Source of the DNA: a virus
Taxonomy: Duplodnaviria > Caudoviricetes
DNA length: 64,000 nucleotides
IMG/VR virus record: IMGVR_UViG_3300048852_000007
Span: 1-64,000 of that record
Strand: one strand, 5' to 3'
The notes under the pieces are model-generated. The model was not told the DNA's origin. It was given only the letters and a program-made list of their open reading frames with translations, and searched no databases. Made by a program: the position numbers and the translations under genes. Shown here piece by piece: positions 11,421 through 29,427 of this stretch (the stretch's first letter is position 1; each line of letters begins with the position of its first letter).

Positions 11421-14400
11421 TTAGTGTGCCAGGTTGAGCCAAGGGTTCAGCCTGAAGGCACCGAAGCCCATACCTGGTCCGATGGAGTGGCCGAGTGTGC
11501 CCTCCAGACCCTTGGTGAAGAGGTTGTCGGTCAGAGGTGTACCGACACTCCCAAGGCCAGGCGGGCTTGGCAGCACATTGGCCAGTAGGGCATGGACCGG
11601 ATTGTTCCTGATCGTCGAGAGGGCGATCTTCGCAGCACGGATCTTGAAATGGTAGAACCAGAGAAGCCCATTGGCCTCCAGAGCCCCACGGAAGCGACCA
11701 GGGAGACGATCGTAGTTCACGAACTCCTCAGTGACTCGACCGAGAGCATACTTTTTAGGCTTCTTTTGGCGAACCGTGATGTCATCATAGATGATCGCCT
11801 TCGCCAGGAAGTCGCCGTACTCCACCGCTTTCTGCATACCCTGAAACAGGGCAGTGTCCTTAGTGACGAGAGCATACCGCCCAGCAGTACGGAGACTGTC
11901 CGGAAGTTTCTCGGTCAACCGCTCCATGTACTGATGCCAACGACCTTCCGAAAGTAGGATCTCGTCACGAGAGATGCCCACATCCGAGATCGAGCTGAAT
12001 TCACCAACCTCGATCAGCGGCCAGATCGACATACGCCGGTAGCTATCCTGGATCGACTGGATCTCAGCCTTGAGCTTACGGGACTGAACCACATCCTGAG
12101 CTGCCTCAGCAGCCCGAAGATCCGCCTCAGCCTCGATCTCCCGCAGCCTGCTCTTGGTGTAGGCGTGGATCTCGGCAGTCTTCTTCGGCAGACCCCGAGC
12201 AATGTCCATCAGAGGCACCCCTCGGCTCATCATCTGATAGATGTTGGAGACGAAGTTCGCTGCTGGAACCACCATAGACTTCACCACAATGAGCAGACGA
12301 GCATCCTTCACCACGTTCTGGATCGTCTTCTCGCTGTTCATCAGGTAGCGATACGCATCGTTGCCCATGACGCCAAGCGCAATGCGCTTCACCTGCTCCT
12401 GCTTGGCAGGAGTCCAATGGGAAATCCCCGTCCAGGCGTCACCTATCGAAGCATTCCGATAGCCCAGTGCATCGTTGAGCATATCTCGACGCACATAGAA
12501 TGCCTCCCCCCCAAAGACTGACCGGGCATGGTCCCGCACTTCCTTCGACATCAGAGAGACCGCATCCCTGAGCACGGGATCCAGACGCTTGGTGTCGAAG
12601 AGATCCACATACTGGGACTGGTTCCCCGAGCTGGCCTTCACGTCCTCTTGGTGCATGCTGTGGAGAGCGTCGATCAGCTTCTCATTGTAGATGCCCGCCT
12701 TGGCCTCTTCGACCTGGCGACCACGCCATACACCGATCATCTTGGCCAGGTGAGTATCCCGGTTCAGCCGATCGAGGTGAGCCGGATCCACACTCCGCTC
12801 AAAAGCCACCACCTCCCCAGTCTCGTTAAATACCGGCAGCAGATTTTCACGAGTACCGCCCTTCTCTTGATGCAACCTACGGTTGATTAGCGCAACCGAG
12901 GCCGGGTCCGCAATACGTCCAGCAACCAGCCCATCAGTAAAACCAGTGCTGGCTTCCACACCCGAAGCTGTGGCCCTGACATTCTGCATGATGCCCTGGT
13001 TGAAGGGACTGCGAGCCGAGACAGGAGCGAAGTAGTAGCTCTGCTTATTCTTGGACCCCTCCGCAGCAGATCCACCGTAATCACCCACCCGGACGTAGCT
13101 CTTCTCAACCAACTCTACGTAGCGGTCATCATCCGCCACGATCAGGCTTACCCCGTCCTGCTGGGTCGAAGGGATGTGCCCCTTGTAGTGGTTCAACCGA
13201 GCTCGCCCAGAAGCCGCCTTACGTTGCTCCTCGACTCGCTGGCCCACCAGGTAGGCCAAGGTGAACTCCATGCCCTGAGCCTCATCCTGGGCCAGGGAAG
13301 CCATGCTCTCCCGGTCCTGGGTGGAGAGGTTCTTCAGAGCATAGAGCGTCACCAGCTGATCCACGTCAGCGATGAAGTCCCGATCTGGACTGACTCTGCC
13401 CTTCTGGGTCCGCTCCCCGAGGAGACGCGAGACAGCCTCGGCATTGCGCAGCAGGTTCGAGCCAGGCTCACCCGTGCCCATGTAGTGGGCCAGTTGCTTG
13501 GCCTTACGCTGGAGCAGGCTCCAATGCGCCTGGTCCTTGCCCGATAGCGTGCTCTCCAGGCTACGAATGCTCCGATCCAGCTGGGTCTCATCCTCCAGAT
13601 GGGTGAGGATCTCGGCCGGGGTGAAGTGCCTGGCGAGAGCTGCCAGGTCCGTCTTGCCCATGCCTCGGAAGAGGGTGCTCCACTCAGCATCGGTCAGCTT
13701 GCGGGAGAACTTGCCAGCGATGATCGTCGGCAGGTGCTCACGGAACTGCTGCCGATCCTGCTGCACATCCGACCGGGTGCGCTTGATCAGGTCATAGACA
13801 TTCATGTTCGAGCTGGTCCGGCCAATGAGATCAACCACCAGCTCCCGGATGGGCTGAAGCCCCTTCACATTGTTCATCATCGTCATGACGCCTTGGGCCA
13901 CCTTCTCGGCCTGGTCCTCATTGACGATGGCAGCGGTGACCCGAGCCGAGGCAGCCAGCCCCTGGGTCAACTTGTTCTGGTGCTTGGCGTCCAGTCTCTC
14001 GGCTGCGCTCACACCCCTGGCGGCCAAGGCATTCAGACCATCGACGATGATCTGATTGGCTCGATCCACCAGCCCACCAACCGGGGATGCCAGCTGGTCG
14101 ATGAGGGTTTGCCGCTCCTGGCTCACCTCCTGGATCCGACGGGAGAGGGCATCCACCGCCTCCTGCACATTGGCTGCCTTGTCGATGCCGGAGATCCTCT
14201 GGGAGAGCGACTCCAGGGCGATATTGCCGGCATTCTCCAGCACCCCGTCCAACGTGTTCCAGCCCTGGAGCACGGTCTTAGGCAGGGCGATCTTGGCCAT
14301 GGCTGTCCGCATGGGATCGTTCACCATGGCCAGACCCAGGAACACCGGCAGCAGCGAGGAGCGACCAACCCCGTCCGTCTCGACGAGGAAGTTGCCCATC

Positions 14401-17400
14401 ACCGTGTCGAACTTCTCCTGCGCCTGGTAGCGGTCAGCCGGATCCAGACTATCAGGATCCGCCATGAAGTCCTCGACCTTGAGGGTCTTGGTCACATGGG
14501 CATAAAGGCTTTGGGCCATCGCCATGGAGTTGGGGTCGATAGCTGCTTCGGTGGCCAGAGCTGCTGTTACCGCCTGGAAGGTGGTCAGCTCCTGCGGCGT
14601 CATGGCGAAGCCATGGGAGACCACCGAGTTGACCAGCCGGCTGGCACCGAGGATAGCCAGGTCCACCTTGCCCTGCCGGTCGATCCGATCGACGGGGTTG
14701 GTGTTGAGGTAGTCCACCACCTGCTTGTCGAAGGTGGCGTTGATCTGGGCCAGGCGCTCACTGTCGCCATAGGCCGTGCTCATGAAGAGCGTGGCATCCC
14801 GCACCTGGCTCTGAAGTGAGGGCTGGCTGCGGACGATGATGCTGGTGTTGAACAGCAGGTTCGAGAGCATGTCGTCTTCAGGCTTCGAGACCTTGGCCCG
14901 ACCGAAGACGAGACGCTTGATCGCCTGGAAGACATCCTTGGCAAGCTGAACCAAGGGGGAAGCCTTGGTCTTGCTCATGGTCTCGGCCAGGTCTTTGTTG
15001 GCCAGGCCCCAAGCCATGAACTCGTTCAGAGCCGCAGCAGGACGACCACCGATCTGGTGTCCATGAATGGCACTCTTAGCAAAAGCGTAGGCATTGCTGT
15101 CGTCGTTCAGAGCCAGGAACTGATCCTGAAGCTGGAGCAAGCGACCAACCGCAAGCTCAGCTTCCTGGTCCTTCAAACGACCATCCAGCACAGCCTCCAC
15201 CTTCTCGTAGGTGGCTGCATGGATCAGCTCATGGACCAAAGTCTCCCTGGAGGGGGAGATCAGGTAGATCGTGCTTTCCCCCGGCACAGTGACACCCTTG
15301 GCGCCATGCACACGCATGGGAAGGGTTAGACCCTTCTCCTCTGCATAGTCAGACAGCTGCTCAACTGTGCCATAGATCACCCGGTAGTCCTTGGCAGCTC
15401 CAGTGCGATGGATCTGATCGAAGATCGTTTGCTGGGCAGGAGCTAGACCAAGCTTCTTGGCGATCTTGTTGATCGCCGTTGGGCTGAGGATCCGCACCTT
15501 CGACTTCGGATCCACCCGACCAAAGGTGAGCTTCTCCTTGGCCGGCTCAATGGCCGGCTTGGTTTTCACCGAAACCGGCTTCGTAGCTGGGGTTTCCGTC
15601 ACTGGCTTGGGTTTGGTGGCCGGCTCTTTTACCGGCGCAGAAGCCTGTTCCCGTCGCTCTGGGTCGATGTTGCTGCGACCGGGCTTTTCACCCAGGTTCA
15701 ACATCAGCTTGTCCAACTCTTCGAGGTAAAGCTTGTTCAGCTCCTCGCTGATTTCCTCCTCGTTGGTTCCCTGAAGCTCAATCCCCTTGTGCTCGTAGGG
15801 GGAGGAAGCCGCTGCCATCTGGTCGATGCTGTGAGACACCCGAGCAATCGCACTGTGACGGGCTTCAACCGAGATCCCTGCCCGGCGAAGTTCCTTATCC
15901 AGATCCTGGATAGCTGCGGCAACGGCACCGTAAGTGGGCTCCCGAATGCCCAAGGTCCGGCCAAGCTTATTCAACATCTCACCGGGGTAGTCAGCTGTCG
16001 GGAAGCTGGGAATGGACTCAGAGAAGGCGAGGGATACCGCCTGAATCGGGTTCCCCTGCCAGGCATCGAACACCGCCTGGTTCGCCTTACGGCTGGAGTC
16101 CTCCAGCTTATCGAGCGGGAAGTTCACACCGTCGAAGATCTTCAGCGAGCCAGTGGGAGCCCCCTTCATGGTGGCCAGGGTCTGCATCATCTGGCCGTCG
16201 CCAGTGCCAATGACCATCATCGGGATGCCTGCAACGCCAGCATCCGTAGGGCCATACACGAAACCGTTCGTACCGATGTGGCCAGTAAGAGACTTGCTCC
16301 ACTCGCTGGCATTCACGTCCGTGGACTGGGAACCAGCGATAAAGAAGCTCTGGCGTCCCGTCTCAACGAGGGGGAACCGCTTCAGCACGTCTGAGAGGAT
16401 GTCATCCCGCTCCTGTCGGGAGAGGCCGTCAGCCTTAGCTCGGGGATCCTGAGCAACCTTCTCTGCGATCTTGGCCCGCACTGCCTCGTTGAAGGTGTGC
16501 TGCTGGAAGATCGACTGGATCTGGGTGGCCTGCTGCACCAGCTTGGCAGACTCCATCAGCGGCTGGCCAATGGTCTGGGTGATGGCTTCCCGCAGCGGCT
16601 TCACAAAGAGATGCTGCATATTGGTGCGGAGGTTCGTCAGACGAGCCTTGTCCACCGTGAAGGTCTTCGCATCGAAGCCTTTCATGGGCTCAACATTCTC
16701 GCCCTGGCTCAACTCCAGCTTGCCCTTGCGACGGGCTACCACATTGGTGGTCAGCGCCTTGAACGCCTTGGAGAAGCGCACCAGCTTGGCCTCGGCCGAG
16801 GCCAGGTCCGTGGAGACACTGCCGAACATGGCTTCAGAGAAGGCCATCTTCGGATTCTCATCGAGCTTCGCCGCCACCTCGGACATGCGCTCATAGAGCT
16901 GCTCGATCATCGCGCTGGTCACCTTGCCAGCGATACCCTTCTCACCTGAGCCATAGATGGTGATGGTCAGGGGGTTCTTGGCGATGCCCCGGTTCATGAC
17001 CAGCTTGCCGTCCTGGATCTCGAAGTCCGGGAGGAAGAGATCCATGAGATCCTTCATCAGGTTCAGCTGTTCCTGAACCTGCGGGGAGTCGATCTCAGCC
17101 GTCAGCTTGGCGAACTCATCAGCCAGGTTGTCGGTGGTGGTCTGGTACATATCCTTGGTATCGTAGCCGTCACCATGCTGTTCGTTCATGGTCCTCGGAC
17201 CACGAAAGAACAGGCCACCCTTGGCCATACGATTCACCCATTCCTTGGTGAAGCGTCCGGAGGTCAGCAGCATCATGGCGTTGACCGGGCCATTGGTCAC
17301 ACCATCGGCTTCGACGTAGATCGAGGTGGTGAAGCTGCTGCGGTCCTGGGTCTCCTGAAGCCGGGCGTATTCAGCCACGGCATGGAGTGCCATCACCGTC

Positions 17401-20400
17401 AGATCGTTCTTAAGGCCCGACTTCATCACCTCAACCAGGCGAGGATCCACCTTGCCGGTGTTGTGGAAGTCCCGGAGCATCTCCACAGCCGGAGCCAGGG
17501 GACCAGAGAGAAGCTTGTCCAGATCCTTGCGAGCGGCATCGAGCTTCTTCTTGTGGACCTTCACGCCGAGAGCCTGTGCCAGACCGAGAGCAAACTTCCG
17601 GTAGTCCGTGCTGTTCTCGTTGCTCAGATCCAAGGTAGAGCGCGTGGGGAGAATAGCTTCACGCACCAGCTTGGTGCTCTGGGGGTTGTAGCGTCCCAGC
17701 ATCTGGAGACGACCCACCCGGTTCACATTGTAGGCGTAGTGGATGGGGAGCTGATCCTGTTCCACGCCAGCCTTTTCAGCCGCATGGCCGACCTCGGTCA
17801 CAAGATTGGTCAGATGGTGGAAAGCCGCAGAGATCGTGCGGTTCTGTCCATCAAGCGACGCAGCATGGTTCTTGTTCAGCACTCGGCCTTCAAGATTCCC
17901 CGCACCGAAGAGACCCAGCAGGTTGTCCAGTCCCAGAGCTTCGTAGAGCTTGACCATGGGGACATTCAGATAGTGCGGAGTCTCCTGCTCCTTGCGGATC
18001 ATCGCCTTCTGTTCAGGAGTGTTCCGCACAGCAGGGTTACGGAGCTGGGTTGCCGCAACCTTGGGCCGGGCATCACCGAAGTAAGTCACATCCTCTGGCT
18101 CAATCAGCACCATTTTCTCGATAGAGCTGGGAGACTTCAGGATCGGATCATCCTTCTCTCGCGCCTTGGCCTCATAGAAGTTGAGAGTCTTGGTCTCTCC
18201 CTGCGGCAGACCGTCCTCATCAGTGATCCTCACCGGAGAGAGGATCAGATCCCCGCTCTCCAGCAGAGCTTCCATCACCTCAGCAGCCATGGCTTCGGGG
18301 ATACCCTCAGCATAGCCATCGGGTACATCGGCATTGGTCTCCAGACCCCAGAACTGAAGGATCTTGTCGGCCAGAGTCCGCTTCGCCGTGACGGTGGGCA
18401 GACCCTTATTGGAGAGTTTCCCGATCAAGGTCTCCTCATCAATGATCTCATCCTCGGGGATGCCGGTCAGAGCTGAAGCCGCCTTCTTGTCGATCTGGGA
18501 TTCCCGCTGGTCAGCCGTCAGCAACCACTGAAGCCCGGCCAGGATCGCACCTTCCAGAAGTTCCTGGTTGTAGCGGAGCGTCTTGCCGTCTGGCTCAGTG
18601 ATGTTCAGCGGCTTGCCATCAGCAAAGCTGTTGGCGGGCTGGCCTGACAGGAATCGCTCCAGCAGAGGCTTGCCTGCGTTGTCACCAGTCTTTGGGGTGT
18701 TCGCCAGATACCTCTGAAGGCGAGCATCCATGATTTTGGCCAGGGTCTTACCCTGACGCAGGTAGCCACGGTACGCCTTGGCGATGTCGGTGTCCTCAGC
18801 AGCATCGACCGCCTTGATCGCATCATCAAGCGGGGTGTCAGTACCGATGGTGTGGGTCTTGGCTTCTTTCGGGAGCTTGAACGCCCGCTTGAACCAGTTG
18901 ACCACCTTGCTCCCTGGCTCAGAACCAATGAGCTTCGGGTAGGCCGCATCCATGCCCTGGAGTGGGGCTTCGGGTTTGACAAACGACACCTGCTCGGGAC
19001 GGAAGACAACAATCTCCTCGTACCGATGCTCAGGATCTGCAAACAGCAAGCCATCATAACCCCGAGCGACAAGATCATCCATCTCTGCCCTGGAGATAGA
19101 GGTGATGGTGATGCTGTCGTCGTCTTTAACCAGGTAGGGGTTGGTCAGGTTGACATAGAGCGGCACAATAGAGACACCGTTCTTCTCAGAGATCTTGCTC
19201 TGGTACTCAGAGAGAGTCAGCTTCTCGGCGCCCTGAGGAATATCAGCCCCAGCCACGGCAGCGGCATAAGAGATATTGCGTGTGGTGTAGAAGCCAATCT
19301 TCTTGTTGTTTATGGCACCGACATTGCCTTTCAACCAAAAATTGGCTCCAGAGTTTTCCCGCTCCGTTTGAATGTTCTTCAAGTCCTCTGGATTCTTGGT
19401 GGCGTGGTACACCTCACCTTGAATCACACTATCCTTGAAGGGGTTGTTCTGGTTACGAGGCTCGGCCTTGACCTTAGCCGGTTTAGCCTCGGCCGCAGCT
19501 TCCGTCGTTGCTTCCGCCGCCTGCGGCGTCGAAACCACCTCCGCTACCGCTGCGGCTTTGGGCTCTTCTTTCTTTGGTTCGGCCTTTGGCTTCGCCTCAG
19601 GCTTGTCTATCGCTTTTGCTTCTTTCTGAGAGGCAACAGGTTTTGTCTCTCCAGACCGCGAATCAACAGGCTTCGCTTCAGCCTTCGGCTTGGAGCCAGG
19701 ACGAACACGCTCACCCTTCTGAAATGCCTGGACCACTTTGTAAGGGTTGCCCTGGAGATCCTGGTTCAGAGTGGGAACCTGGATCTGCTCCCCATTCAGC
19801 GCCGGGAAGGCAATACGCAAACCCTCGTAGATCTCGGCCAGGCGCTGAGCTTCCAGCTGCACACGCTGAGCCAACTCAACTGAGCCAGCATTGTGAGGAT
19901 GTACAGCCAGGCCAGCCTTGTCCTGGTACCACTCCCGAGTCGTGGGGTTAAGCGCCTGGTAGGAAACATTCCTCCCACCACCCTGGGCGAAGTGCTGATT
20001 CAGTGCCCCGACCTTGTTCGCCATGTGCTGGACGAACTCGCCGAAGCCTTTGAGGTGGGACGCCGCCAGCTTGGTGTTACCTGCCCGCATGGCCTGGGCA
20101 ATGCGGTTGTAGTGCGCTACCGCCGAGAGCTTCGGAGCATTGGGATCCGGGTCCACCTGGATCTGGTCCGACACATCGTTCAGGAGACGCTTGTGACCCA
20201 GCGCCTTCTGCTCATCGCTGGCTTTCTTGGCGGCTTCCAGGATGGCCTTGGACGCCATGAGCGCCGAGCGTTGCGAGTCGGTAAGCTGGATGCGACCCTG
20301 CTCAGCGTGCATCAGGACCATGTTGGTCGCTTCAAGGTTCCCCTTGTGCGGCGCAATCTGGGCGATACCGACGATGTTCTGAGCTTGCTGCTGTCCCTCC

Positions 20401-22337
20401 GGTGTTGCCAGGCTTTCCGGAGTGATCGGCTTGGCTTGGACCTGAGCCTGGACCTCGGCAATCTGCTCCTGCATCCGAGCCAGAGCACGTTGAATCGCCG
20501 GGTTCTGCTGAAGCTGAGGGATCAGTGCATTGAACTGCCCGATGATCCGACCGGCCGGATGCTCATCCGAGATGGCTTCCAGCGCCGCTTCGTCACTGAA
20601 AACGACATCCTCGTACTGACCCAGGAGTTCATAGAGGGTCACTGCGGCGGCAATGGCGTCCGGAGATTTGGGGTCAACCTTGTTGACCACCTGAGCCAGG
20701 CGCTGCAAGGCTTCGACACGGTGCGTGGAACCAGAGAGAGCCTGACGTACCTGCTCCGGAAGCTGAGTGTTCTCATACATCGCCGGATCGAAGCGGCTGA
20801 CATTGAGGATCTTCTCGGCCAGAGCCGACACCGCAGGCTGAGCTTCCGGAGGCGCAGCTGCCACCGCCTCGGCAAGAGCGGCTTCGGTCTGGGGTGCATT
20901 GGCAGCAACCTCGGCACCGGCCCGCTGGATGACGCTATCGGCCACCGGAGAGGCAGCCTCATTCCTGGCACGGTTAGCTTCATGTCGTTGAGCCAGAGCA
21001 CCCAGCACAGTCCGTCCAGTGGCTTCCACCGAACCAAGGGCAGCACGACCAACCGCACCAGGTGCCTGGATGGCACCAGCAGTGCCAAGCCCGAAGAGCG
21101 CACCCGTGCCAGCTTGCTCACCCACACCTTCCGAGATCGTGCGGGTCTCATCGGCAAATTGCTGGGTGGCCAGGTTCTGCGCCACCTGGCCAGTGGCACC
21201 CTGGATACCTTCTTCCACTGGTTCGGTGACCAGGTTCCGGGCAGCCGTCCGTAGATTGGGCACTCGAAGCGGTGCTGCCTCAAATCGAGACACCAGACCA
21301 CCGGCAGCCATGGCAGCAGGGGCAGTGATGCCGGCCGCCATCAGACCAGCTCGTCCTGCTGCTCGGGTTCGTGCCTCTTCAGGGCTCAGACCTTGTTCAC
21401 GTAGCTCCCGGTAGTAGGGAGAGTTGGCTTCCAGCTGATCAAAACTCATCCCAGCGATCTCGGAAGCCGTCTGTTGGTAAGCACCACCGGCTTCCATACC
21501 GCCAATGGCCACAGACATCCCACTCGGAGCCCGGCTCAGTGCCGCAGAAGGCAGCGCAGCCCGACCGATAGCCGACAATCCTCGACCAATAGGTCCACCC
21601 GTCAGCAGAGAACCAACGCCCTGTGCCACACCGTCAGAGAGTGTGGTGGGATCAGCGATGGTATTGCCCACAGCGTCCAGAGCATCCCGGCCAAAGCGCC
21701 TCAGACCTGCGATGGTGCTGCCTTGGGTCCGGCTCTCTTCCTCGAAGCGAGCAGTGTTATCCCGGAAGTCCAGCTCGTTCTCGACACCAATGGCCCGACG
21801 GCGGTTCTGGAGAGTCGGGGACTGAGTACCCTGAACAAAGCGGGTGAAGCCCTGGAGACGGTTGGAGATTTCCACACCCAGTCGGTCGCTGATGGCACCA
21901 CCAGCCAGAGCAGCAATACCGCCGACCGAGTTGGCCACACCCAGGCCAACACCGGACACCAGATCCGAAGCAATCTCCTCATCGTTGCGGGTACCCCGAG
22001 TGTCCGAGCGGAAGTCCCGGATACCCTGGAGCTGTTGGCGAATGAGTCGGTTGCCCTCGTCGTCGCCATACCTTTCCCGGATCTGGTTCGGGGTGAGGGT
22101 GGCCAGCTCCGTCTCAAGCGGACCCATGGAAGCCCGTCCAGCACCAGTGGCCCGACCAGCGGCAAAGCGATAGGCGTCGGCATTCGTGAGGTCAGGAGCC
22201 CCCATGGCTCCACGCTTGGCTTCAGTGGCAGCAGTCACTCGCTGCTGCACGGCGACAGGGACAGGGGGCGGAAGAGCAACCGACTCTACAGAGGGGGTCT
22301 GCACGGCAGACTCAAGCAGGTCGTTGATAATCGCCAT
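11421..22337 (-). CDS. Virion-encapsidated RNA polymerase (N4 gp50-like), 3638 aa
   Basis: Size; T7-like motifs YVEADGVTNGP (A), RGIAKNPLTITIYGSG (B), LKIFDG (C); mini-vRNAP-like start GMDAAYPKLIG. Confidence 0.97.
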   Translation of the reverse strand: MAIINDLLESAVQTPSVESVALPPPVPVAVQQRVTAATEAKRGAMGAPDLTNADAYRFAAGRATGAGRASMGPLETELATLTPNQIRERYGDDEGNRLIRQQLQGIRDFRSDTRGTRNDEEIASDLVSGVGLGVANSVGGIAALAGGAISDRLGVEISNRLQGFTRFVQGTQSPTLQNRRRAIGVENELDFRDNTARFEEESRTQGSTIAGLRRFGRDALDAVGNTIADPTTLSDGVAQGVGSLLTGGPIGRGLSAIGRAALPSAALSRAPSGMSVAIGGMEAGGAYQQTASEIAGMSFDQLEANSPYYRELREQGLSPEEARTRAAGRAGLMAAGITAPAAMAAGGLVSRFEAAPLRVPNLRTAARNLVTEPVEEGIQGATGQVAQNLATQQFADETRTISEGVGEQAGTGALFGLGTAGAIQAPGAVGRAALGSVEATGRTVLGALAQRHEANRARNEAASPVADSVIQRAGAEVAANAPQTEAALAEAVAAAPPEAQPAVSALAEKILNVSRFDPAMYENTQLPEQVRQALSGSTHRVEALQRLAQVVNKVDPKSPDAIAAAVTLYELLGQYEDVVFSDEAALEAISDEHPAGRIIGQFNALIPQLQQNPAIQRALARMQEQIAEVQAQVQAKPITPESLATPEGQQQAQNIVGIAQIAPHKGNLEATNMVLMHAEQGRIQLTDSQRSALMASKAILEAAKKASDEQKALGHKRLLNDVSDQIQVDPDPNAPKLSAVAHYNRIAQAMRAGNTKLAASHLKGFGEFVQHMANKVGALNQHFAQGGGRNVSYQALNPTTREWYQDKAGLAVHPHNAGSVELAQRVQLEAQRLAEIYEGLRIAFPALNGEQIQVPTLNQDLQGNPYKVVQAFQKGERVRPGSKPKAEAKPVDSRSGETKPVASQKEAKAIDKPEAKPKAEPKKEEPKAAAVAEVVSTPQAAEATTEAAAEAKPAKVKAEPRNQNNPFKDSVIQGEVYHATKNPEDLKNIQTERENSGANFWLKGNVGAINNKKIGFYTTRNISYAAAVAGADIPQGAEKLTLSEYQSKISEKNGVSIVPLYVNLTNPYLVKDDDSITITSISRAEMDDLVARGYDGLLFADPEHRYEEIVVFRPEQVSFVKPEAPLQGMDAAYPKLIGSEPGSKVVNWFKRAFKLPKEAKTHTIGTDTPLDDAIKAVDAAEDTDIAKAYRGYLRQGKTLAKIMDARLQRYLANTPKTGDNAGKPLLERFLSGQPANSFADGKPLNITEPDGKTLRYNQELLEGAILAGLQWLLTADQRESQIDKKAASALTGIPEDEIIDEETLIGKLSNKGLPTVTAKRTLADKILQFWGLETNADVPDGYAEGIPEAMAAEVMEALLESGDLILSPVRITDEDGLPQGETKTLNFYEAKAREKDDPILKSPSSIEKMVLIEPEDVTYFGDARPKVAATQLRNPAVRNTPEQKAMIRKEQETPHYLNVPMVKLYEALGLDNLLGLFGAGNLEGRVLNKNHAASLDGQNRTISAAFHHLTNLVTEVGHAAEKAGVEQDQLPIHYAYNVNRVGRLQMLGRYNPQSTKLVREAILPTRSTLDLSNENSTDYRKFALGLAQALGVKVHKKKLDAARKDLDKLLSGPLAPAVEMLRDFHNTGKVDPRLVEVMKSGLKNDLTVMALHAVAEYARLQETQDRSSFTTSIYVEADGVTNGPVNAMMLLTSGRFTKEWVNRMAKGGLFFRGPRTMNEQHGDGYDTKDMYQTTTDNLADEFAKLTAEIDSPQVQEQLNLMKDLMDLFLPDFEIQDGKLVMNRGIAKNPLTITIYGSGEKGIAGKVTSAMIEQLYERMSEVAAKLDENPKMAFSEAMFGSVSTDLASAEAKLVRFSKAFKALTTNVVARRKGKLELSQGENVEPMKGFDAKTFTVDKARLTNLRTNMQHLFVKPLREAITQTIGQPLMESAKLVQQATQIQSIFQQHTFNEAVRAKIAEKVAQDPRAKADGLSRQERDDILSDVLKRFPLVETGRQSFFIAGSQSTDVNASEWSKSLTGHIGTNGFVYGPTDAGVAGIPMMVIGTGDGQMMQTLATMKGAPTGSLKIFDGVNFPLDKLEDSSRKANQAVFDAWQGNPIQAVSLAFSESIPSFPTADYPGEMLNKLGRTLGIREPTYGAVAAAIQDLDKELRRAGISVEARHSAIARVSHSIDQMAAASSPYEHKGIELQGTNEEEISEELNKLYLEELDKLMLNLGEKPGRSNIDPERREQASAPVKEPATKPKPVTETPATKPVSVKTKPAIEPAKEKLTFGRVDPKSKVRILSPTAINKIAKKLGLAPAQQTIFDQIHRTGAAKDYRVIYGTVEQLSDYAEEKGLTLPMRVHGAKGVTVPGESTIYLISPSRETLVHELIHAATYEKVEAVLDGRLKDQEAELAVGRLLQLQDQFLALNDDSNAYAFAKSAIHGHQIGGRPAAALNEFMAWGLANKDLAETMSKTKASPLVQLAKDVFQAIKRLVFGRAKVSKPEDDMLSNLLFNTSIIVRSQPSLQSQVRDATLFMSTAYGDSERLAQINATFDKQVVDYLNTNPVDRIDRQGKVDLAILGASRLVNSVVSHGFAMTPQELTTFQAVTAALATEAAIDPNSMAMAQSLYAHVTKTLKVEDFMADPDSLDPADRYQAQEKFDTVMGNFLVETDGVGRSSLLPVFLGLAMVNDPMRTAMAKIALPKTVLQGWNTLDGVLENAGNIALESLSQRISGIDKAANVQEAVDALSRRIQEVSQERQTLIDQLASPVGGLVDRANQIIVDGLNALAARGVSAAERLDAKHQNKLTQGLAASARVTAAIVNEDQAEKVAQGVMTMMNNVKGLQPIRELVVDLIGRTSSNMNVYDLIKRTRSDVQQDRQQFREHLPTIIAGKFSRKLTDAEWSTLFRGMGKTDLAALARHFTPAEILTHLEDETQLDRSIRSLESTLSGKDQAHWSLLQRKAKQLAHYMGTGEPGSNLLRNAEAVSRLLGERTQKGRVSPDRDFIADVDQLVTLYALKNLSTQDRESMASLAQDEAQGMEFTLAYLVGQRVEEQRKAASGRARLNHYKGHIPSTQQDGVSLIVADDDRYVELVEKSYVRVGDYGGSAAEGSKNKQSYYFAPVSARSPFNQGIMQNVRATASGVEASTGFTDGLVAGRIADPASVALINRRLHQEKGGTRENLLPVFNETGEVVAFERSVDPAHLDRLNRDTHLAKMIGVWRGRQVEEAKAGIYNEKLIDALHSMHQEDVKASSGNQSQYVDLFDTKRLDPVLRDAVSLMSKEVRDHARSVFGGEAFYVRRDMLNDALGYRNASIGDAWTGISHWTPAKQEQVKRIALGVMGNDAYRYLMNSEKTIQNVVKDARLLIVVKSMVVPAANFVSNIYQMMSRGVPLMDIARGLPKKTAEIHAYTKSRLREIEAEADLRAAEAAQDVVQSRKLKAEIQSIQDSYRRMSIWPLIEVGEFSSISDVGISRDEILLSEGRWHQYMERLTEKLPDSLRTAGRYALVTKDTALFQGMQKAVEYGDFLAKAIIYDDITVRQKKPKKYALGRVTEEFVNYDRLPGRFRGALEANGLLWFYHFKIRAAKIALSTIRNNPVHALLANVLPSPPGLGSVGTPLTDNLFTKGLEGTLGHSIGPGMGFGAFRLNPWLNLAH
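18975..19450 (-). other. ADP-ribosyltransferase-like (ART-PolyVal-type) domain embedded in the vRNAP, about aa 963-1121
   Basis: VYHAT ... GFYTT ... IVPLYVNLTNP ... GYDGLL ... YEEIVVFRPEQV signature; AT-richer than flanks. Confidence 0.7.
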
Positions 22338-22404
22338 TTTTACCCTCTGAGTCTTTAAGCTGCCGATGGTACGTCAGCGTATAGTCTATCAACTCGGGGG
22401 TATA

Positions 22405-22431
22405 AATAGAAATCCCCGCCGAAGCGGGGAT
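22405..22431 (-). terminator. Rho-independent terminator after the gp51-like gene
   Basis: On the minus strand ATCCCCGC-TTCG-GCGGGGAT-TTCTATTT. Confidence 0.75.
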
Positions 22432-22479
22432 CTCCTACAATTCTACTCTAAAACTACCAGTCTGTTTCTGAAGAGTTAA

Positions 22480-24780
22480 TCAGCGCCTAGGAGAAGACCC
22501 TTCGATCACGCTTTCGTAGTTACCCAGCAGTCGGTCAATCTGAGCCTGCAAAGCAGCCCGTTGCTCTTGCCGACGGGCATCCTGCTCACGCCACCGGGCG
22601 TAACCCTCTGGATCTGCTTGACGCTGCCTCAGGCTTGGAGGACGAGGGGCCTCTCTTTGCAGGGCACTCAAGGCACTGCGGGCTTCGTCGATCTGCTGTC
22701 CGATCTGTTCAGCCGCCGGAGGAACAGCAGGTGCAGCAGCGGAGGCCAGTGCAGCTGCCGCAGGTGTGCCAGTCCTGGTAGCAGTGGGAGTAGGAGCAGG
22801 CGTTCCAGTATCTAGAGCAGCCGGCGGCAGAGTAGTCTCACCAGGCTGAGCTACCGCTGTGGCTGCGGCATTGGCAGGCGCACTCCGACGAGGTTGCAGC
22901 GTAGCATCCTTCTGCTGCCGACCCAGGGCAGCTTCAAGACTGGCCTGAGCCAGACCAAGCTGAGCCCGATACCGGGGGATCAGGTTCGTCATCCCTCGAC
23001 GGGTTACCTCTGCCAGGTTGGCAGCTGCGGTCGTGTGAGCTTGCCTGGCAGATTCCAAAGCCGCAGCCTGAGCCTCCATAGTCTGGGCCTGCTCAGTGGC
23101 GTCGAAGGTGGTGCCCTGCTGCATGAGGGCAGCATCCCGACGCACTGCCTCGGTATTGGGAACCACAGAATAGCCGCCCAGGATCGTCGGCAGATTGCGA
23201 CGAATGAACCCTGCACCTTGCGGGTTGTTCTCCAGAAGCAAACCAGCACGAGCGGCATTGATCCCCGTGTTGGATCGGCCATCCGGACCTGGAGCCGTCA
23301 TGACATCCTGGAGATCATTAATCAGCCGCTCAATCGGAAGATTCTGATACACCGGGTTCTGCTTCAGCTTGGCAGCCACCTCACTGATGGTGGAGTTGTC
23401 CTGTCCCGCCGCAGCATAACGAGCCGTAATACCGTCTGCCCGTTCCTGCGTAAGACGCTCACCAATCTGACCGACGGCTTGGTTGGTTCGAGCACCAGCA
23501 CTGGCAACCTGGGTTCGCAGAGCCGTCAAGCTCTCAGGCGTAGCACCAACTTCACGCTGGGCAATCAGGGGGCGGATCTCCTCCCAGCTCATATTGGCAT
23601 AGCCGCCAACACCTCGATCCGGCAGAGCAGCCCAGGTCTGCGAGAGATTGCCGTTACGCCGCTCCTCGAAGATAGCCTTAGCAATTCTGTCCTGGTTCTC
23701 AGGCGAGAGGGGTTGGTTCCGCCAGTCCGAGCCAAGGACACGAGGGGCGAAGTCCGAGAGCGTGGCATGGTTGATCTGGAAAGCACCCACCGGACTGGCA
23801 CCCACTCGTGGCAGCAGCTGGGTCCGCTGGAAATCCACCACGTCGCCAATGTTCATGGTCGAAACCGGAGCCGGCGTCGCCGTGAAGCCATAGGCCACAT
23901 CGAAGGGGCTGCCAGCACGAGTACCAGCCGTACCAGGTGCCGAGGAGCCAGGGGCAGCAGTACGGGCACCGCGGTTCGCTGCGGTCGCTATAGCGCCAGA
24001 AGCCGGGGTTCCAGTGGTAGGTGCGGTTGCAGCCGTGGCTGGGGGGCTGAAGGCTCCTGCCCAACGACGGCCGATCTCTGCATCCACCAAGGAACGGGCA
24101 CCCGGCGACAAGGCTCGATACTCAGGGGTAGCCCGGAGGTTATAGGCATCCTCCACCAGCAGAGCTTCGTCCCCGAATCGCCCGATGAACCCAAGCGCAG
24201 TTTGGGTATCAGCGTCATTCCGGCGCTCATTGCCGAAGGTGAACCGCCCACGCTCCAGACTCAGAGTATCAGAATCAACACCGATCCGGCTTCGCTGGTT
24301 CTGGATCGTCTGCCCCTCATTGCCGAGCGCCATCTGGGTTAGACGAAGGGGGTTAGCTTCTCGATTGAAATCAATGTCCTGCTGAGAACGGGTGTTATTC
24401 TGCTCCATTCCTGTGAGCCGCAGAGGGTTAGCACGCTGGTCGAAGCTCAGCCGCTCCCGTGCCGTGGCCTGATCCAGGAGAACTGAACTACGGTTGTCGA
24501 GCGCTTGTAGGGTTCGAGGCGTAACCAAGGTGGGATCCAACCCCGCCATGACATCACCCCGAGCCAGGGCAGCCTGGTACTCGGCAGGGTCAGAGAACCT
24601 CTGGGCATTGCGCAGGGCAGCGTTGTCGGCTTGCTCCTGGCGGTAGGTCTGGAACTTGCCCAGGCCATCGCTCAGACCAGAGAAGGCCCGATCCAAGGAG
24701 TTGGCAGCGACGTTCAGGCCGGCAAGCGATCCCCGGAAATCCGGGGTATCGACATTCCGCCACGTCAGGGGAGGAGCCAT
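22480..24780 (-). CDS. Internal virion/ejection protein (N4 gp51-like) with a lysozyme-like domain
   Basis: MAPPLTWRNV N-terminus; GAFQINHATL...SPENQDRIA...TWAALP lysozyme-like motifs; adjacent to vRNAP. Confidence 0.8.
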   Translation of the reverse strand: MAPPLTWRNVDTPDFRGSLAGLNVAANSLDRAFSGLSDGLGKFQTYRQEQADNAALRNAQRFSDPAEYQAALARGDVMAGLDPTLVTPRTLQALDNRSSVLLDQATARERLSFDQRANPLRLTGMEQNNTRSQQDIDFNREANPLRLTQMALGNEGQTIQNQRSRIGVDSDTLSLERGRFTFGNERRNDADTQTALGFIGRFGDEALLVEDAYNLRATPEYRALSPGARSLVDAEIGRRWAGAFSPPATAATAPTTGTPASGAIATAANRGARTAAPGSSAPGTAGTRAGSPFDVAYGFTATPAPVSTMNIGDVVDFQRTQLLPRVGASPVGAFQINHATLSDFAPRVLGSDWRNQPLSPENQDRIAKAIFEERRNGNLSQTWAALPDRGVGGYANMSWEEIRPLIAQREVGATPESLTALRTQVASAGARTNQAVGQIGERLTQERADGITARYAAAGQDNSTISEVAAKLKQNPVYQNLPIERLINDLQDVMTAPGPDGRSNTGINAARAGLLLENNPQGAGFIRRNLPTILGGYSVVPNTEAVRRDAALMQQGTTFDATEQAQTMEAQAAALESARQAHTTAAANLAEVTRRGMTNLIPRYRAQLGLAQASLEAALGRQQKDATLQPRRSAPANAAATAVAQPGETTLPPAALDTGTPAPTPTATRTGTPAAAALASAAAPAVPPAAEQIGQQIDEARSALSALQREAPRPPSLRQRQADPEGYARWREQDARRQEQRAALQAQIDRLLGNYESVIEGSSPRR

Positions 24781-24794
24781 GATCCTGTATCCTC

Positions 24795-25247
24795 TCAGCG
24801 AGTCAGCTGATTGCGAGCGATGTAGTCTCGCTCCTCGGCTTCGCTCATACCGTTGACCTTGGCCCTGGCACCAATCCGATCCGTGAGAGCCGTGTTGTAG
24901 CTCTTGATCTGGTTCGTCAGGTTGGTGTCAGCGATCCTGCGGGTGAGGCCCAGCTGCTCTCGGGCCAGGTTATTGGCCTGGAAGGCATTCCAGATATTCC
25001 CGATAGCACCGAGGCCAGCCATACCGAGCTGTGCCGTACCAAGGTTCCAGCCAAAGCCTGAACCAGGGGCACCAGCACCATTGGGTCCAGGCATCCCACC
25101 CCAACTGATGTCCTGCCGACCGCTGGGATCCATCAGCGCATTGATGGGCTGAGCCCCAAAATCCATGATGCTGTTGGGTCGCTGGGTCACCATGCTGGGA
25201 CTGGAGCCAAAGAAGTTGGGGAACTCGAAAGCCATCACACTCTCCAT
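24795..25247 (-). CDS. Small virion structural/ejection protein (N4 gp52-like)
   Basis: Gly-rich hydrophobic segment followed by NQIKSYNTAL..R motif; gene order. Confidence 0.8.
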   Translation of the reverse strand: MESVMAFEFPNFFGSSPSMVTQRPNSIMDFGAQPINALMDPSGRQDISWGGMPGPNGAGAPGSGFGWNLGTAQLGMAGLGAIGNIWNAFQANNLAREQLGLTRRIADTNLTNQIKSYNTALTDRIGARAKVNGMSEAEERDYIARNQLTR

Positions 25248-27766
25248 CAGGTCGGGAGTTCGGTGCTGAGAGTGATCTCAGCGAAGTTGGTCACCATACT
25301 CAGAGACATCTCAGCCACCTCACTCCCCGTCATCAGGGTCCGGCTGAAGAAGCTATCGGGTGGCTCGAAGATGTTCGTCTGGGACGAGTCCGTCAGAGCC
25401 AAGGGATTCAGTATCTGAAAGCCTGACCCCAGAACCTCATCATACTTGGCGGCTATGGCTTCAGATTGGGCAGTATAATCGGCCAACACGGCCTGTGTCT
25501 TGCCCATGACATCTTGAGCTTCGGCTTTCATATAGTCCGCATAACCATTACCGGCTGCCACGGTCAGCTTGAGGATGTTCTCTGCCCGAGTGAGCTGGGA
25601 GAAGGAGGAAGAAAGATTCCCCGAACCAAGAGAAGCTCCCACTTGAAGTGCCACGACCGAGGCAATGACGGCAACGATGGCTCCAACCTTCTCCCCGAAG
25701 ATCGCTGTGGAGCCTGCTGAGATAATGGTGGTGAGAACCATCGCTGCCACGGCATTAGCGATAGCCCCAGCAATGATGGCAGCGACTCCTGTGTAACCTA
25801 GAGCTGCTCCAACTGCTGCATTGGCACCTAGAAGTCCAACAGAGCCAGCACCTGCACCACCAGTGACCACGGTGACGACGATGATCGCCACGATCAGCAG
25901 CACCTTGAACCAACCAGACTGGTACCACTTCTCTTTAACGATCTGGTAGCAGTTGAAGACGATGAAGCAGCACGCCGTACTCATCTGAGTGGCGTCCACA
26001 AGGTTCATCCTTCGGAAGATTTCCTCGTGGAGTGGGATCAGAAATCCAGACTCTTCTGGATCAACCAGGGCTTCAGCTCCGGAGATTACCACAGACCTGC
26101 CGCCATAGATGGTATTGCGGTGGCGTAGTCCACGGATGTCCAGAGTTCTCCAGGAGTCTTCGGTCACCTGCCAGTGGAGGAGAATGCTGTCGATGTCCTC
26201 TCCCGCCATGGAGATGAATCCACCCTCTCCAGTGAAGATGTCATAGATCGGAGACTCGACTTCCCCTACCTCGAACCAGAGTTCCCCCACCTTGGCATCA
26301 GGCTTCTTCAGACCGGAACCTACTGATTCCTCAATCGAGGACCAGGTGATCGCCATGTCGTAGTTGATGATGGGATTGCTGCTGCTGGCCACCCGAACGG
26401 TGTGCCGAGGCTGCTTGGGGTAATAGGGTCCGATTGGCTCCGGTGTCCCGAAGAGCGGGTTCCCCGGATCATACTGGGCATCGAACCAGGTCTGCCATTC
26501 GATGGCTCGCGCTTCTGCCGTCTCATAGGCTTCCCGCCAGGCCCGGAGGCTTTCACCCGTGAGATCCTGACCCTGCATGATCTCCTGGAAGAACTCATAG
26601 ACATAGCGCCGGCAAGCATTCTCCTTGACGTTCAGGGAGACACCGAAGGTCACATAGGCATAGTCGATGTCCCCGACAGACGGGTTCTCCTCCACCTTCC
26701 CCCGCAGATCATCGAAGCTGCTGCCCAGGGCTTTCTTGAGCGCCTTCTTCACCGAGGGGTAGAAGGCACTGTGGCTGCTCTCCGGGGTGATGAAGGTGTT
26801 GTCCAACCGCACGGGTATGAAGGGGAAATAATCCCCCGCACTCTCACTGGCCTGGAACAGCGCATCCAGATCGGCATTGCCGGTGCCCTGCTGGTAGATC
26901 AGCACCTGAAGGTTGGACCACGCCTTCACCACAATGTCCTGGGTGTCCACCCGGTAGCTCTTCTCGGTGACGGTGCTGGTGGCATCCTCCGTGGTCGTCC
27001 ACTGGAACATCACCTCCCGCACGGCATGGGTGCTGGCGGAACCAGTGGTTCCCCCGAGGTAGACATCCCGCTCCCAGATTTCCTGGAGCCTGGTGAAGCC
27101 AGGTGCAGGCACGGTGTTGGAGGTGCCCGTCAGCACCCACCCCGAGGTGCTGGGGAAGGGATCACTTGGATCCAGCTCAACCTCCGACCCAGTGACCGGA
27201 GGCGTTTCTTGGTTGGTGTCCACCAGATTGTAGGTGGCATAGAGGTACAACCCCACTGGATCGAAATCCGTCGGGGTGAAGCTCTCGATCGAGGTGTCTG
27301 CCAAAGTGACGGAGATCGTGTTGGTGTCTTCGTCGAAATCCGAGATGTAGTCGGTGTTGAGCTCGCTGGGATGGAAGGTCGCCATATAGCGATCGACCCA
27401 GAAGGTGTAATCCGGCACCCCGATCTCGGCCGTCTGAACCAGCACCTCTTGGCCTGGGTCATGAGGGATCAGCGCAGCCAGGGCATTGTTGTCCACCGTC
27501 TGGCTCAGGATCAGTGAGCCAGAAGGGATCCCCATATAGCTGGTGTAGCCGCTCGACCTGCCCCAACGCGGATAGGCCCGTAGCTTGATACCAGGGCCAT
27601 TCAGATAACTACGCCGAAGAGTCTCTGAGAGAGTCTCTCCGGTGGGAGTCAAGATCCCACCGATCAGCGTCGTCTTGAGATAATCGGGACGATCATTCTC
27701 ATCCCCGGCCAGGTTGTAGACGACCGAGGAGACACTCACAGACTTCTTGGTGCTGAAGACTCCCAC
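25247..27766 (-). CDS. Virion structural protein (N4 gp53-like), 839 aa
   Basis: VSSVVYNLAGD N-terminus; C-terminal KWYQSGWFK plus hydrophobic Gly/Ala region; gene order. Confidence 0.82.
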   Translation of the reverse strand: MGVFSTKKSVSVSSVVYNLAGDENDRPDYLKTTLIGGILTPTGETLSETLRRSYLNGPGIKLRAYPRWGRSSGYTSYMGIPSGSLILSQTVDNNALAALIPHDPGQEVLVQTAEIGVPDYTFWVDRYMATFHPSELNTDYISDFDEDTNTISVTLADTSIESFTPTDFDPVGLYLYATYNLVDTNQETPPVTGSEVELDPSDPFPSTSGWVLTGTSNTVPAPGFTRLQEIWERDVYLGGTTGSASTHAVREVMFQWTTTEDATSTVTEKSYRVDTQDIVVKAWSNLQVLIYQQGTGNADLDALFQASESAGDYFPFIPVRLDNTFITPESSHSAFYPSVKKALKKALGSSFDDLRGKVEENPSVGDIDYAYVTFGVSLNVKENACRRYVYEFFQEIMQGQDLTGESLRAWREAYETAEARAIEWQTWFDAQYDPGNPLFGTPEPIGPYYPKQPRHTVRVASSSNPIINYDMAITWSSIEESVGSGLKKPDAKVGELWFEVGEVESPIYDIFTGEGGFISMAGEDIDSILLHWQVTEDSWRTLDIRGLRHRNTIYGGRSVVISGAEALVDPEESGFLIPLHEEIFRRMNLVDATQMSTACCFIVFNCYQIVKEKWYQSGWFKVLLIVAIIVVTVVTGGAGAGSVGLLGANAAVGAALGYTGVAAIIAGAIANAVAAMVLTTIISAGSTAIFGEKVGAIVAVIASVVALQVGASLGSGNLSSSFSQLTRAENILKLTVAAGNGYADYMKAEAQDVMGKTQAVLADYTAQSEAIAAKYDEVLGSGFQILNPLALTDSSQTNIFEPPDSFFSRTLMTGSEVAEMSLSMVTNFAEITLSTELPT

Positions 27767-27768
27767 GA

Positions 27769-28734
27769 TCAGAGTCCGAGATCGGTCTTCAGACGGGTCA
27801 GCACGGTATCCAGACTGGCGTTGGTGAAGCCATCCGGGGGTTCGACACCCTCATCAATGGTCTTCTGAGTGAGCCAAGCATCGCTGAAGATCTTGCCGAT
27901 CTTCACCCGGCCATCCTTCTGATAGCTATCAATCTGCTGGGTGTAGAGATCCTTCTGCTTGCCCATCACACCCCGCACAGCTTGACCATCAATGCGGATG
28001 TCCAGCGTCTGAGCATGTTGCGCCTCAGCCTGCTCCTTCATCAACTGAACCTGAGCCGGCAGGACCGTGGAGATCTGGTACTCAGCAGCCTCTCGCTGCG
28101 CTTGAGCCGTTTGCAGTTGCTCAGGAAGCATCTGATTGAGGTTGAACGATGCGGTTTCCCGCTGGATCGTGGCCAGGGTCAGCTGCTCGGGCAGCACATT
28201 ATCCAGGGTGAACTTCAGCGTGCAGTATTGGACGCTCTCGGTGGAGAGCTTCAGCTTCGCATTGGCATACTCGGCTTTGGAGAGCAGCGCATCGAACTGG
28301 GATTTCGCCAGCTCAACCCTGGTGGTCTCAAGCTGTACCCGTCCGGTGACCGCAGCCACCTGCGCTTTTTGTGCCTCCCAGAACGCCTGCCCACGGTTCA
28401 GGACAAACTGGACCGAGCTGGCCATGGCAGCCTGGGTCAGCTCGATATACGCCTTGGTGTACTCGGCGCCTGTGATGCGACCCTTCTCGTACTCGACGGC
28501 AAGGTGAGCATTCACCGTCGCCATCAGAACATCGAAGGTGCCGGACCCACCGACGACCTTCGTCGTCAGATCCTCGTTCGATGGGTGAACGACGACCTTG
28601 TACATATCGTCGTCCAGGCCAGCGGGGACCTTGAAGAGCGCATTATCAAGATCGACGGTCGGGATCGTGAAGTTCAGCCCGGCAGTCAGAGATGTGAGCA
28701 GGGTATCAGCTTCGGTTTCGGCGCCACAACTCAT
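27769..28734 (-). CDS. Virion structural protein (N4 gp54-like)
   Basis: GSGTFDVLM..V..HL..EY..GRITG.EYTKAY motif; gene order. Confidence 0.82.
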   Translation of the reverse strand: MSCGAETEADTLLTSLTAGLNFTIPTVDLDNALFKVPAGLDDDMYKVVVHPSNEDLTTKVVGGSGTFDVLMATVNAHLAVEYEKGRITGAEYTKAYIELTQAAMASSVQFVLNRGQAFWEAQKAQVAAVTGRVQLETTRVELAKSQFDALLSKAEYANAKLKLSTESVQYCTLKFTLDNVLPEQLTLATIQRETASFNLNQMLPEQLQTAQAQREAAEYQISTVLPAQVQLMKEQAEAQHAQTLDIRIDGQAVRGVMGKQKDLYTQQIDSYQKDGRVKIGKIFSDAWLTQKTIDEGVEPPDGFTNASLDTVLTRLKTDLGL

Positions 28735-28756
28735 CGGGCTGGTCCTTCTAGCGAAT

Positions 28757-28795
28757 TGAAAAGGCCCACCGGCTCAACAAGGAACCTGGTGGGCC
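28757..28795 (-). terminator. Hairpin/terminator after the gp55-like gene
   Basis: GGCCCACC...GGTGGGCC stem with TTTTC tail on the minus strand; 13-nt loop. Confidence 0.55.
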
Positions 28796-28821
28796 ATATG
28801 GTCTTTGGAACTGTCTACGGG

Positions 28822-29427
28822 TCAGTCCCCAACGCTGCCTGCCGCAGCCTGGGCATTGGCCAGACGGGCAAGCTCTTCCTTGGAGAGCTGCGGCATCACC
28901 TCCAGGGCAAACTCCTTGGCCCAGGTCTGCTCCACATGCTCCCGGCCATTGCGCTTGGAGGTGCGGATGTTCAGGAACTTGCGGTTATCAAGGTACCGAT
29001 AGAGGCAGTAGGGGACATGGTAGCCGCTGTCCGTCACCTCGCCATACGGGACAAACTTCCGAACCGTACCAAGATACTCATTGGCCACGGTGATGATCTC
29101 ACCAGGGAGATCCTTCTTCTTTGGATCCAGATTGGTGATCCGCAACCGGACCAGCTTCATCTGCTTCTCCACCAGCATCTGGCGAAGACTGCGCTTCTTA
29201 GCCGGAGGCTGGGTCTCCCCTGCCAGGGGGTTCGCCTGCACAGGCTGCTCAGAGTTGGACTCGTCTTCGCCTTCCATCCGGGCCTGGACGCGTTCCCGAA
29301 GCTTGGCAAGGCTGATGTTGTTGGAAAACTCGATACCCATCATCCGAGCGCGCTGCTTCAGCAGGGCAAGCTCATCACCCTGGAGATTGGCAGACTGGTC
29401 TTCGGTCTGGGTCAGAACGTCGCTCAT
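28822..29427 (-). CDS. Conserved N4-like protein (gp55-like)
   Basis: LVRLRITNLDPKKKDLPGEIITVAN motif; directly downstream of the major capsid gene. Confidence 0.82.
   Translation of the reverse strand: MSDVLTQTEDQSANLQGDELALLKQRARMMGIEFSNNISLAKLRERVQARMEGEDESNSEQPVQANPLAGETQPPAKKRSLRQMLVEKQMKLVRLRITNLDPKKKDLPGEIITVANEYLGTVRKFVPYGEVTDSGYHVPYCLYRYLDNRKFLNIRTSKRNGREHVEQTWAKEFALEVMPQLSKEELARLANAQAAAGSVGD

Follow-up and report, generated by a model that had tools for sequence, protein, structure and literature searches.

The 64,000-nucleotide stretch of DNA analyzed here (hereafter the window) covers positions 1 to 64,000 of IMG/VR record IMGVR_UViG_3300048852_000007, the complete 75,892-bp genome of an uncultured phage of the Caudoviricetes, and it encodes on its minus strand a virion RNA polymerase (vRNAP) of 3638 amino acids (aa) that resembles gp50 of phage N4. 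We consider it likely that residues from about 957 to 1121 of this protein are a folded ADP-ribosyltransferase (ART) domain of the ART-PolyVal family, belonging to the H-Y-E class with PARP- and diphtheria-toxin-type kin, that is injected with the vRNAP and is predicted to mono-ADP-ribosylate a host macromolecule. The gene and the domain are located as follows.

11421 to 22337, minus strand: virion RNA polymerase gene (N4 gp50-like), 3638 aa in one uninterrupted open reading frame, assigned from that single frame and its Pfam domains.

18975 to 19469, minus strand: ART-PolyVal domain, about aa 957-1121, assigned from Pfam PF18760, homologues, motifs and an AlphaFold2 (AF2) model.

When the piece spanning aa 940-1140 (P0002) was excised and searched against Pfam, the only match was ART-PolyVal (PF18760; E = 4.5e-7, 31.2 bits). 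A phmmer search of 1.84 billion representative proteins with the domain gave 38 matches (best E = 7e-20), many of which are giant polyvalent proteins (1,000-5,800 aa) in which as many as 16 copies occur in tandem; the window domain too lies within a large multidomain protein, an N4-type vRNAP, as in the pattern of the ART-PolyVal family. Fifteen of the 38 matches were searched against Pfam in turn, and nine were above the PF18760 cut-off (60-571 bits), three were below it and three had no significant match. The PF18760 matches of P0004, P0012 and the fragment P0003 reach only about 17-18 bits, under the cut-off, no Pfam match was obtained for P0011, and the best PF18760 match in P0027 lies on another copy than the one matched by the query.

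In an alignment of 15 full-length domains, the window domain keeps all of the family motifs, namely V-Y-H978-A-T, G-F-Y1017-T-T, N1066-P1067, G1093-Y-D1095-G, E1107-E1108 and P1114-x-Q1116, with E1107-E1108 directly before the strand IVVF and T1019 as a further key residue. H978, Y1017 and E1108 stand in conserved H, [Y/F] and [E/D] columns, the third of which is E or D in all 15 domains, and the strands predicted by AF2 at aa 975-980, 1016-1019 and 1107-1111 carry the regions of these three residues. The preliminary description of this DNA had taken an H...T...E pattern as the ART-PolyVal signature; an ART-PolyVal-type domain with its triad is present, but the triad is better written H-Y-[E/D] (H978, Y1017, E1108). 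An H / Y / acidic configuration, with D at strand 5, is the one given for ART-PolyVal by Iyer et al. (2017, PMC5512222).

Among the giant metagenomic proteins, P0006, P0014, P0022, P0010 and others each carry 8-16 tandem ART-PolyVal copies. Across about 200 such copies, G-Y-D-G, N-P and F-x-P-x-Q-I-K-S-A are near-invariant, and the acidic strand-5 position is E in 58 of 202. Many of these copies may be catalytically dead, or the local hidden Markov model alignment may be off by one column at strand 5.

The structural comparisons point the same way as the motifs. A family profile compared with solved structures aligned YHGT and GFY-x-T with YHGTK and GFYST of diphtheria toxin (E = 0.079), segments that we take to hold the catalytic H21 and Y54. 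The only matches of the profile search against the PDB, to diphtheria toxin and cholix, were weak (E of at least 0.079), phmmer with the domain gave no match among PDB sequences, and a PHROGs search gave marginal matches only, to families of unknown function. The AF2 model, made from a 12-sequence alignment, has a mean predicted local distance difference test score (pLDDT) of 72 and a predicted template modeling score of 0.69. With this model, the top Foldseek matches were all tankyrase, exotoxin A, diphtheria toxin or PARP, although none is strong (E about 0.01, probability at most 0.93). A Foldseek-independent search with VIA-align gave 22 chains at Z of at least 5, and those listed belong to the ART superfamily except for 9k3a_B; PARP1, tankyrase 1 and PARP2 reached a Z of 6.5, ParT 5.7, NatT 5.5 and MbcT 5.3, and diphtheria-toxin homologues were also matched. 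The preliminary description had looked to structure searches for an ART fold, and both match lists are near-uniformly ART. Because this agreement among the matches is joined by agreement of the motifs, we regard the modeled ART fold as secure.

The best structural matches thus comprise PARP1/2, tankyrase, diphtheria toxin, exotoxin A and ParT (Z 5-6.5, 111-133 aligned residues), and the window family shares with solved H-Y-E enzymes the YHGT and GFY-x-T motifs at the NAD+ site. It differs from them in that identity is only 8-19%, the window domain is without PARP regulatory or toxin translocation domains, and it has the family-specific N-P and G-Y-D-G motifs together with a helical insert of 25 aa. 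The chain set apart above, 9k3a_B, is a pre-ejectosome chain of cyanophage A4, of which residues from about 1418 to 1603 match the ART model with a Z of 6.1 and a root-mean-square deviation of 5.9 over 114 aligned residues. ADP-ribosylation is not mentioned in the paper on A4 (PMC12002296); if this T7-like ejection protein does contain an ART-like domain, that would be of interest.

To place the domain within the polymerase, we aligned the first 1,700 residues of the window vRNAP with the vRNAPs of N4, Pseudomonas phage inbricus and two Pokkenviruses and with P0041, a 3471-aa vRNAP carrying the same ART subfamily. The features around and within the domain are the following.

19470 to 19715, minus strand: low-complexity Lys/Pro/Glu/Ala linker upstream of the ART, about aa 875-956, read from the sequence and aligning with the linker of N4 between the N-terminal domain (NTD) and the RNA polymerase (RNAP).

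19203 to 19250, minus strand: central helix, about aa 1030-1045, of an insert of about 25 aa (about aa 1030-1054; ADIPQGAEKLTLSEYQSKISEKNG) that follows strand 2 and is specific to the subfamily.

15738 to 18956, minus strand: polymerase core (mini-vRNAP equivalent), about aa 1128-2200, assigned from alignment with the N4 core, Pfam and tblastn.

The segment first described, aa 963-1121, corresponds to nucleotides 18975-19451, and its landmarks VYHAT, GFYTT, IVPLYVNLTNP, GYDGLLF, YEEIVVFRPEQV and GMDAAYPKLIG were all found. The linker reported before it, rich in Ala, Lys, Glu and Pro, is the Lys/Pro/Glu/Ala-rich low-complexity stretch at about aa 875-960, and GMDAAYPKLIG, proposed as the start of the N4-type core, is paired by MAFFT with N4 EGIDAVYPSLVG (about N4 aa 1005-1016). 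The ART domain therefore ends about 7 residues upstream of the start of the core. At the site of the window ART, N4 and inbricus carry nothing but low-complexity linker. The insert is present in the window and P0041 only and not in P0004, P0012 or P0011, and AF2 models it as a helix with a block pLDDT of 84-86.

The domain had also been described as an insertion in AT-richer DNA. It is indeed extra relative to N4 and to most Schitoviridae vRNAPs, and its GC content of 50.5% is the lowest of any 477-nucleotide window in the gene (mean 59.2%, SD 2.6%). Its GC content at third codon positions, however, is near normal, at 64% versus 71% for the whole gene (18th percentile), and the dip comes mostly from the Asn/Lys/Ile/Tyr-rich amino-acid make-up of the domain, not from foreign codon usage. 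We thus rejected the GC dip as strong evidence for recent foreign DNA; as a sign of recent acquisition, the composition is weak evidence.

The position of the domain bears on how it would reach the cell. In N4, residues 907-1006 are a low-complexity linker of about 100 aa that joins the membrane-binding NTD to the RNAP (Bellis et al. 2026, PMC13434306), and the cryo-EM model begins at residue 1007/1008 (PMC13434306). The N4 vRNAP is present at 4 +/- 1 copies per virion and is proposed to cross the tail as "beads on a string", with beads of up to about 250-300 aa passing the channel, after which the RNAP and C-terminal domain refold in the cytoplasm while the linker tethers them to the membrane (PMC13434306). 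Packaging and ejection of the window vRNAP are inferred from N4 and DEV (PMC13434306, PMC11445570). By homology to N4, the whole vRNAP would be packaged in a few copies per virion, and the ART would form one further bead in the flexible linker between NTD and core, at the end nearest the polymerase; the vRNAP would be ejected through the tail and the cell envelope and would refold so that the polymerase lies on the cytoplasmic side. In this way the ART would be intracellular ahead of any phage gene expression. There it could draw on host NAD+ for mono-ADP-ribosylation of a host macromolecule, of which a protein is the most likely kind, and act as an early takeover or counter-defense effector while still tethered beside the polymerase.

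Several points weigh against this interpretation. The PF18760 score of the excised piece equals the curated gathering cut-off exactly (31.2 bits); it falls below the cut-off both in the whole protein (20.2 bits) and in a six-frame search of the genome (23.7 bits); and the match is limited to model positions 42-130. In the AF2 model, the loops at aa 996-1004 are of low confidence, and the structural Z scores are moderate (at most 6.5), which is a range that the tool flags as possibly non-specific. Packaging and ejection of the vRNAP of this uncultured phage are predicted by homology to N4, and we found no published activity for any ART-PolyVal member in the searchable literature. Finally, folds of the H-Y-E class also cover NADases, NAD+ phosphorylases (MbcT, RES, NatT) and modifiers of DNA or RNA (DarT), so that the fold fixes neither the chemistry nor the substrate.

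On the model, the fold cannot separate transfer from NAD+ degradation, since NatT, MbcT and RES-type enzymes match with similar Z, or from nucleic-acid modification, for which there are weak DarT matches. The domain could be an NAD+-consuming hydrolase or phosphorylase that, after injection, lowers NAD+ locally or destroys NAD+-derived defense signals, and its Z is similar to that of same-fold toxins (NatT 5.5, MbcT 5.3, an Xre-RES toxin complex 5.0); Iyer et al. (2022) also argue that phage domains acting on NAD+ and ADP-ribose (ADPr) often counter soluble ADPr derivatives. We consider this unlikely, however, given that YH-x-T, GFY-x-T and the E before strand 5 match transferases of the PARP and diphtheria-toxin type, that about four tethered copies per virion would be poor at depleting the cellular NAD+ pool, and that ART-PolyVal was grouped with protein-modifying ARTs by Iyer et al. 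(2017, PMC5512222). The same grouping by its describers (PMC5512222) counts against a domain that ADP-ribosylates nucleic acid by a DarT-like or PARP-like end modification, whether of host DNA or RNA or of the phage's own ejected DNA end. Such a domain, ending about 7 residues before the core, would lie beside promoter DNA and nascent RNA, and H-Y-E ARTs do include DNA and RNA modifiers, with DarT among the weaker fold matches (Z 2.9-3.4); but DarT and Tpt1 are among the weakest of those matches and no nucleic-acid-binding motif was seen in the domain, so we hold nucleic acid to be quite an unlikely substrate. Modification of a host protein remains our preferred interpretation.

Next, we compared the window vRNAP with that of P0041. 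The two proteins are 25.5% identical overall, but their ART domains are 62-64% identical and occupy the same position when the two proteins are aligned colinearly. Outside the ART, windows of 160 aa have a mean identity of 24% (SD 6%) and a maximum of 44%, so the ART is the most conserved segment between the two. The control pair of roseophages, Roseovarius Plymouth podovirus 1 (RPP1) and DSS3phi2, behaves in the opposite manner, with 45% identity overall and 23-29% in the ART, which is its least conserved part. A close copy of the ART on a near-unrelated backbone suggests cassette exchange, and identity of 62-64% in the ART on a backbone of about 25% might reflect a recent swap. Either the ART moved between lineages whose polymerases had diverged long before, or the constraint on it is unusually strong; both alternatives argue for a functional domain, and we regard the window ART as probably active.

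This comparison also bears on whether the domain could instead be a catalytically dead bead or a binding module, kept in the ejected polymerase for spacing or docking. Inactive members of the family seem to exist, as the strand-5 column frequently has a residue other than the acidic E or D over the roughly 200 tandem-array copies, and the Pfam score of the window domain is marginal. On the other hand, H978, Y1017 and E1107/E1108 are kept in the window, the triad is also present in P0041, P0004 and P0012, the conservation seen on comparing the window with P0041 points to a constrained role that goes beyond spacing, and N4 does well with a plain linker. Because the triad is intact and the domain conserved, we regard an inactive structural bead as very unlikely and favor an active ART.

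The site before the core is occupied differently in other schitoviruses. In the alignment, the vRNAPs of the Pokkenviruses PB119 (Xanthomonas) and Piffle (Stenotrophomonas) have a GNAT-like module of about 100 aa just before the core, at the same site as the window ART. This module is similar to the ART in size but has another fold and chemistry, being acetyltransferase-like, and its match to the Pfam acetyltransferase families is below threshold (best E = 1.3e-4, 22.7 bits versus a cut-off of 27). In PB119 it lies at L002:3700-4077 (about aa 950-1075 of the vRNAP) with the motif KKEGRGQGGARK, and the same region is found in Piffle (L003). That a different module occupies the same site is the reason for viewing the linker as a general cargo slot. 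We hold only tentatively, as possible rather than probable, that the linker between NTD and RNAP of schitoviruses is such a slot, in which small effector cassettes are swapped horizontally between very distant phages, and that the vRNAP-specific ART subfamily possibly has a target at the site of ejection or transcription rather than being a generic modifier of host proteins. The cassettes seen so far for this slot are the window ART subfamily, the Pokkenvirus GNAT-like module and the roseophage ART with its zincin. The alternation of ART and GNAT-like modules at one site supports the "beads-on-a-string" view of the vRNAP, according to which additional small domains can be accommodated in the linker.

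In a phylogenetic tree, the window domain and those of P0041, P0004, P0011 and P0012 form one clade with a support of 98 in the Shimodaira-Hasegawa-like approximate likelihood ratio test (SH-aLRT), and the roseophage domains form a separate clade (SH-aLRT 98). Compared pairwise over 65 aa, the window ART is at most 26% similar to the roseophage ARTs. A tblastn search of 50,697 phage records with the window domain matched no schitovirus and no roseophage, a pattern scan found no close relatives in the IMG/VR and GTDB genomes, and a word search found no short stand-alone homologues (110-352 aa). Judged by its sequence, the window domain belongs to a distinct and rare subfamily of ART-PolyVal in a non-roseophage lineage. 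An approximately unbiased test for a joint clade of the window subfamily and the roseophage ARTs did not reject it (p = 0.69), and the tree constrained to that clade was 8.95 log-likelihood units above a quick free search; both one and two acquisitions of the ART by vRNAPs are compatible with these results.

P0012 is a very distant vRNAP-like protein of 3783 aa from an ENA contig of 44 kb. It shares its C-terminal domain with the window vRNAP, at 20% identity across 1,173 aa (E = 1e-20). Pfam detected no N4 RNAP domain in it, and it carries the same ART subfamily at aa 344-465, far nearer the N-terminus. Because of this placement, the ART cassette is not restricted to a single insertion site. 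The sole phage record matched by tblastn with the window ART was that of Limnohabitans phage DC33 (L011, PQ492659.1), where the match falls in a hypothetical protein of 3,126 aa at positions 22242-31619. The DC33 record is circular, 39 kb long and classed as Inoviridae, and its size and content are odd for an inovirus; the protein resembles a polyvalent protein from some other type of element.

Fusion of an ART to a vRNAP is not a novel arrangement. Iyer et al. (2017, PMC5512222) already noted that some N4-like RNAPs have an NAD+-dependent ART fused to them, and they defined ART-PolyVal on the vRNAP of RPP1, whose ART is the prototype of polyvalent-protein ARTs; for this architecture they predicted modification of host proteins (PMC5512222). 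Our searches agree with this. In RPP1 (CBX87992.1), Pfam confirmed ART-PolyVal at aa 1023-1096 and, after it, a zincin peptidase at aa 1252-1387, and tblastn found the RPP1-type ART in the vRNAPs of all 17 roseophage records matched, so roseophage vRNAPs share the fusion as a conserved feature. ADP-ribosylation goes unmentioned in the 2026 paper on the N4 structure (PMC13434306). The window vRNAP has in common with RPP1 and other Rhodovirinae the presence of PF18760 on an N4-like vRNAP between the N-terminal domain and the core, the triad of H, Y or F and an acidic residue, and the predicted injected role in modifying the host. It differs in that the zincin peptidase separates the ART from the polymerase in RPP1 while the window ART abuts the core, and in that the window ART belongs to a separate subfamily in a deep-branching, non-roseophage host lineage. 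The window ART is thus a further example of a published fusion strategy that has been known since 2017 from marine N4-like phages, and what is new is the distinct subfamily in a different lineage, the suggested cassette exchange with P0041 and the GNAT-like alternative at the same site.

A parallel had also been drawn with Alt of phage T4, which Iyer et al. (2017, PMC5512222) took as the working model. The parallel stands as one of function, since in both cases a virion-carried ART would enter with the DNA and be able to act before phage gene expression, but the two are not of the same clade: Alt belongs to the R-S-E (Alt/VIP2) clade and the window domain is H-Y-E. The Alt-type Pfam families gave no match to the excised window domain even at E <= 10, and the domain lacks the R-S-E motif. 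Alt is also a free internal protein of the head, whereas the window ART is covalently part of the polymerase. The targets of Alt include the alpha subunit of RNAP, and this is not transferable to the window domain. The targets put forward in the preliminary description, namely host RNAP, nucleic acids and defense proteins, are speculative.

The remainder of the vRNAP is typical of its family. Four N4 vRNAP families (PF21894, PF21769, PF21867 and PF21624) matched with E values from 2e-16 to 4.5e-70, and the matches to N4_RNAP_helical (E = 4.5e-70), vRNAP_dom, vRNAP_dom_2 and vRNAP_plug fall within aa 1442-2175. The protein is colinear with the vRNAPs of N4, inbricus and the Pokkenviruses, as is expected of an N4 gp50-type polymerase, and tblastn with its core gave 100% query coverage in 181 phage records. 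Core identity is 44-45% to the vRNAPs of N4-like phages of Achromobacter, Pseudomonas and Klebsiella. Because the core is at most 45% identical to that of any isolate, we place the phage as a deep-branching, uncultured, non-roseophage schitovirus. No Macro, NADAR or ARH erasers of ADP-ribose were found in the phage genome at E <= 0.1. One further feature was read from the sequence of the C-terminal domain.

15210 to 15248, minus strand: HExxH zincin-like motif (LVHELIHAATYEK), aa 2364-2376.

The 835-aa protein P0011, which carries the same ART subfamily, has a HEMIHALT segment that aligned weakly and locally with this motif. Going by the letters of the two proteins, both would fit the network of ART and metallopeptidase domains described in 2017.

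The finding is an incremental addition and leaves current understanding unchanged. It extends the published ART-vRNAP fusion beyond marine roseophages to a lineage of 57-60% GC, the nearest isolates of which infect Proteobacteria such as Achromobacter, Pseudomonas, Stenotrophomonas and Xanthomonas. With its strong conservation against a diverged backbone, the subfamily is a good candidate for a first biochemical test of ART-PolyVal. Injected enzymes act before phage gene expression, and this makes them prime candidates for early host takeover or counter-defense.

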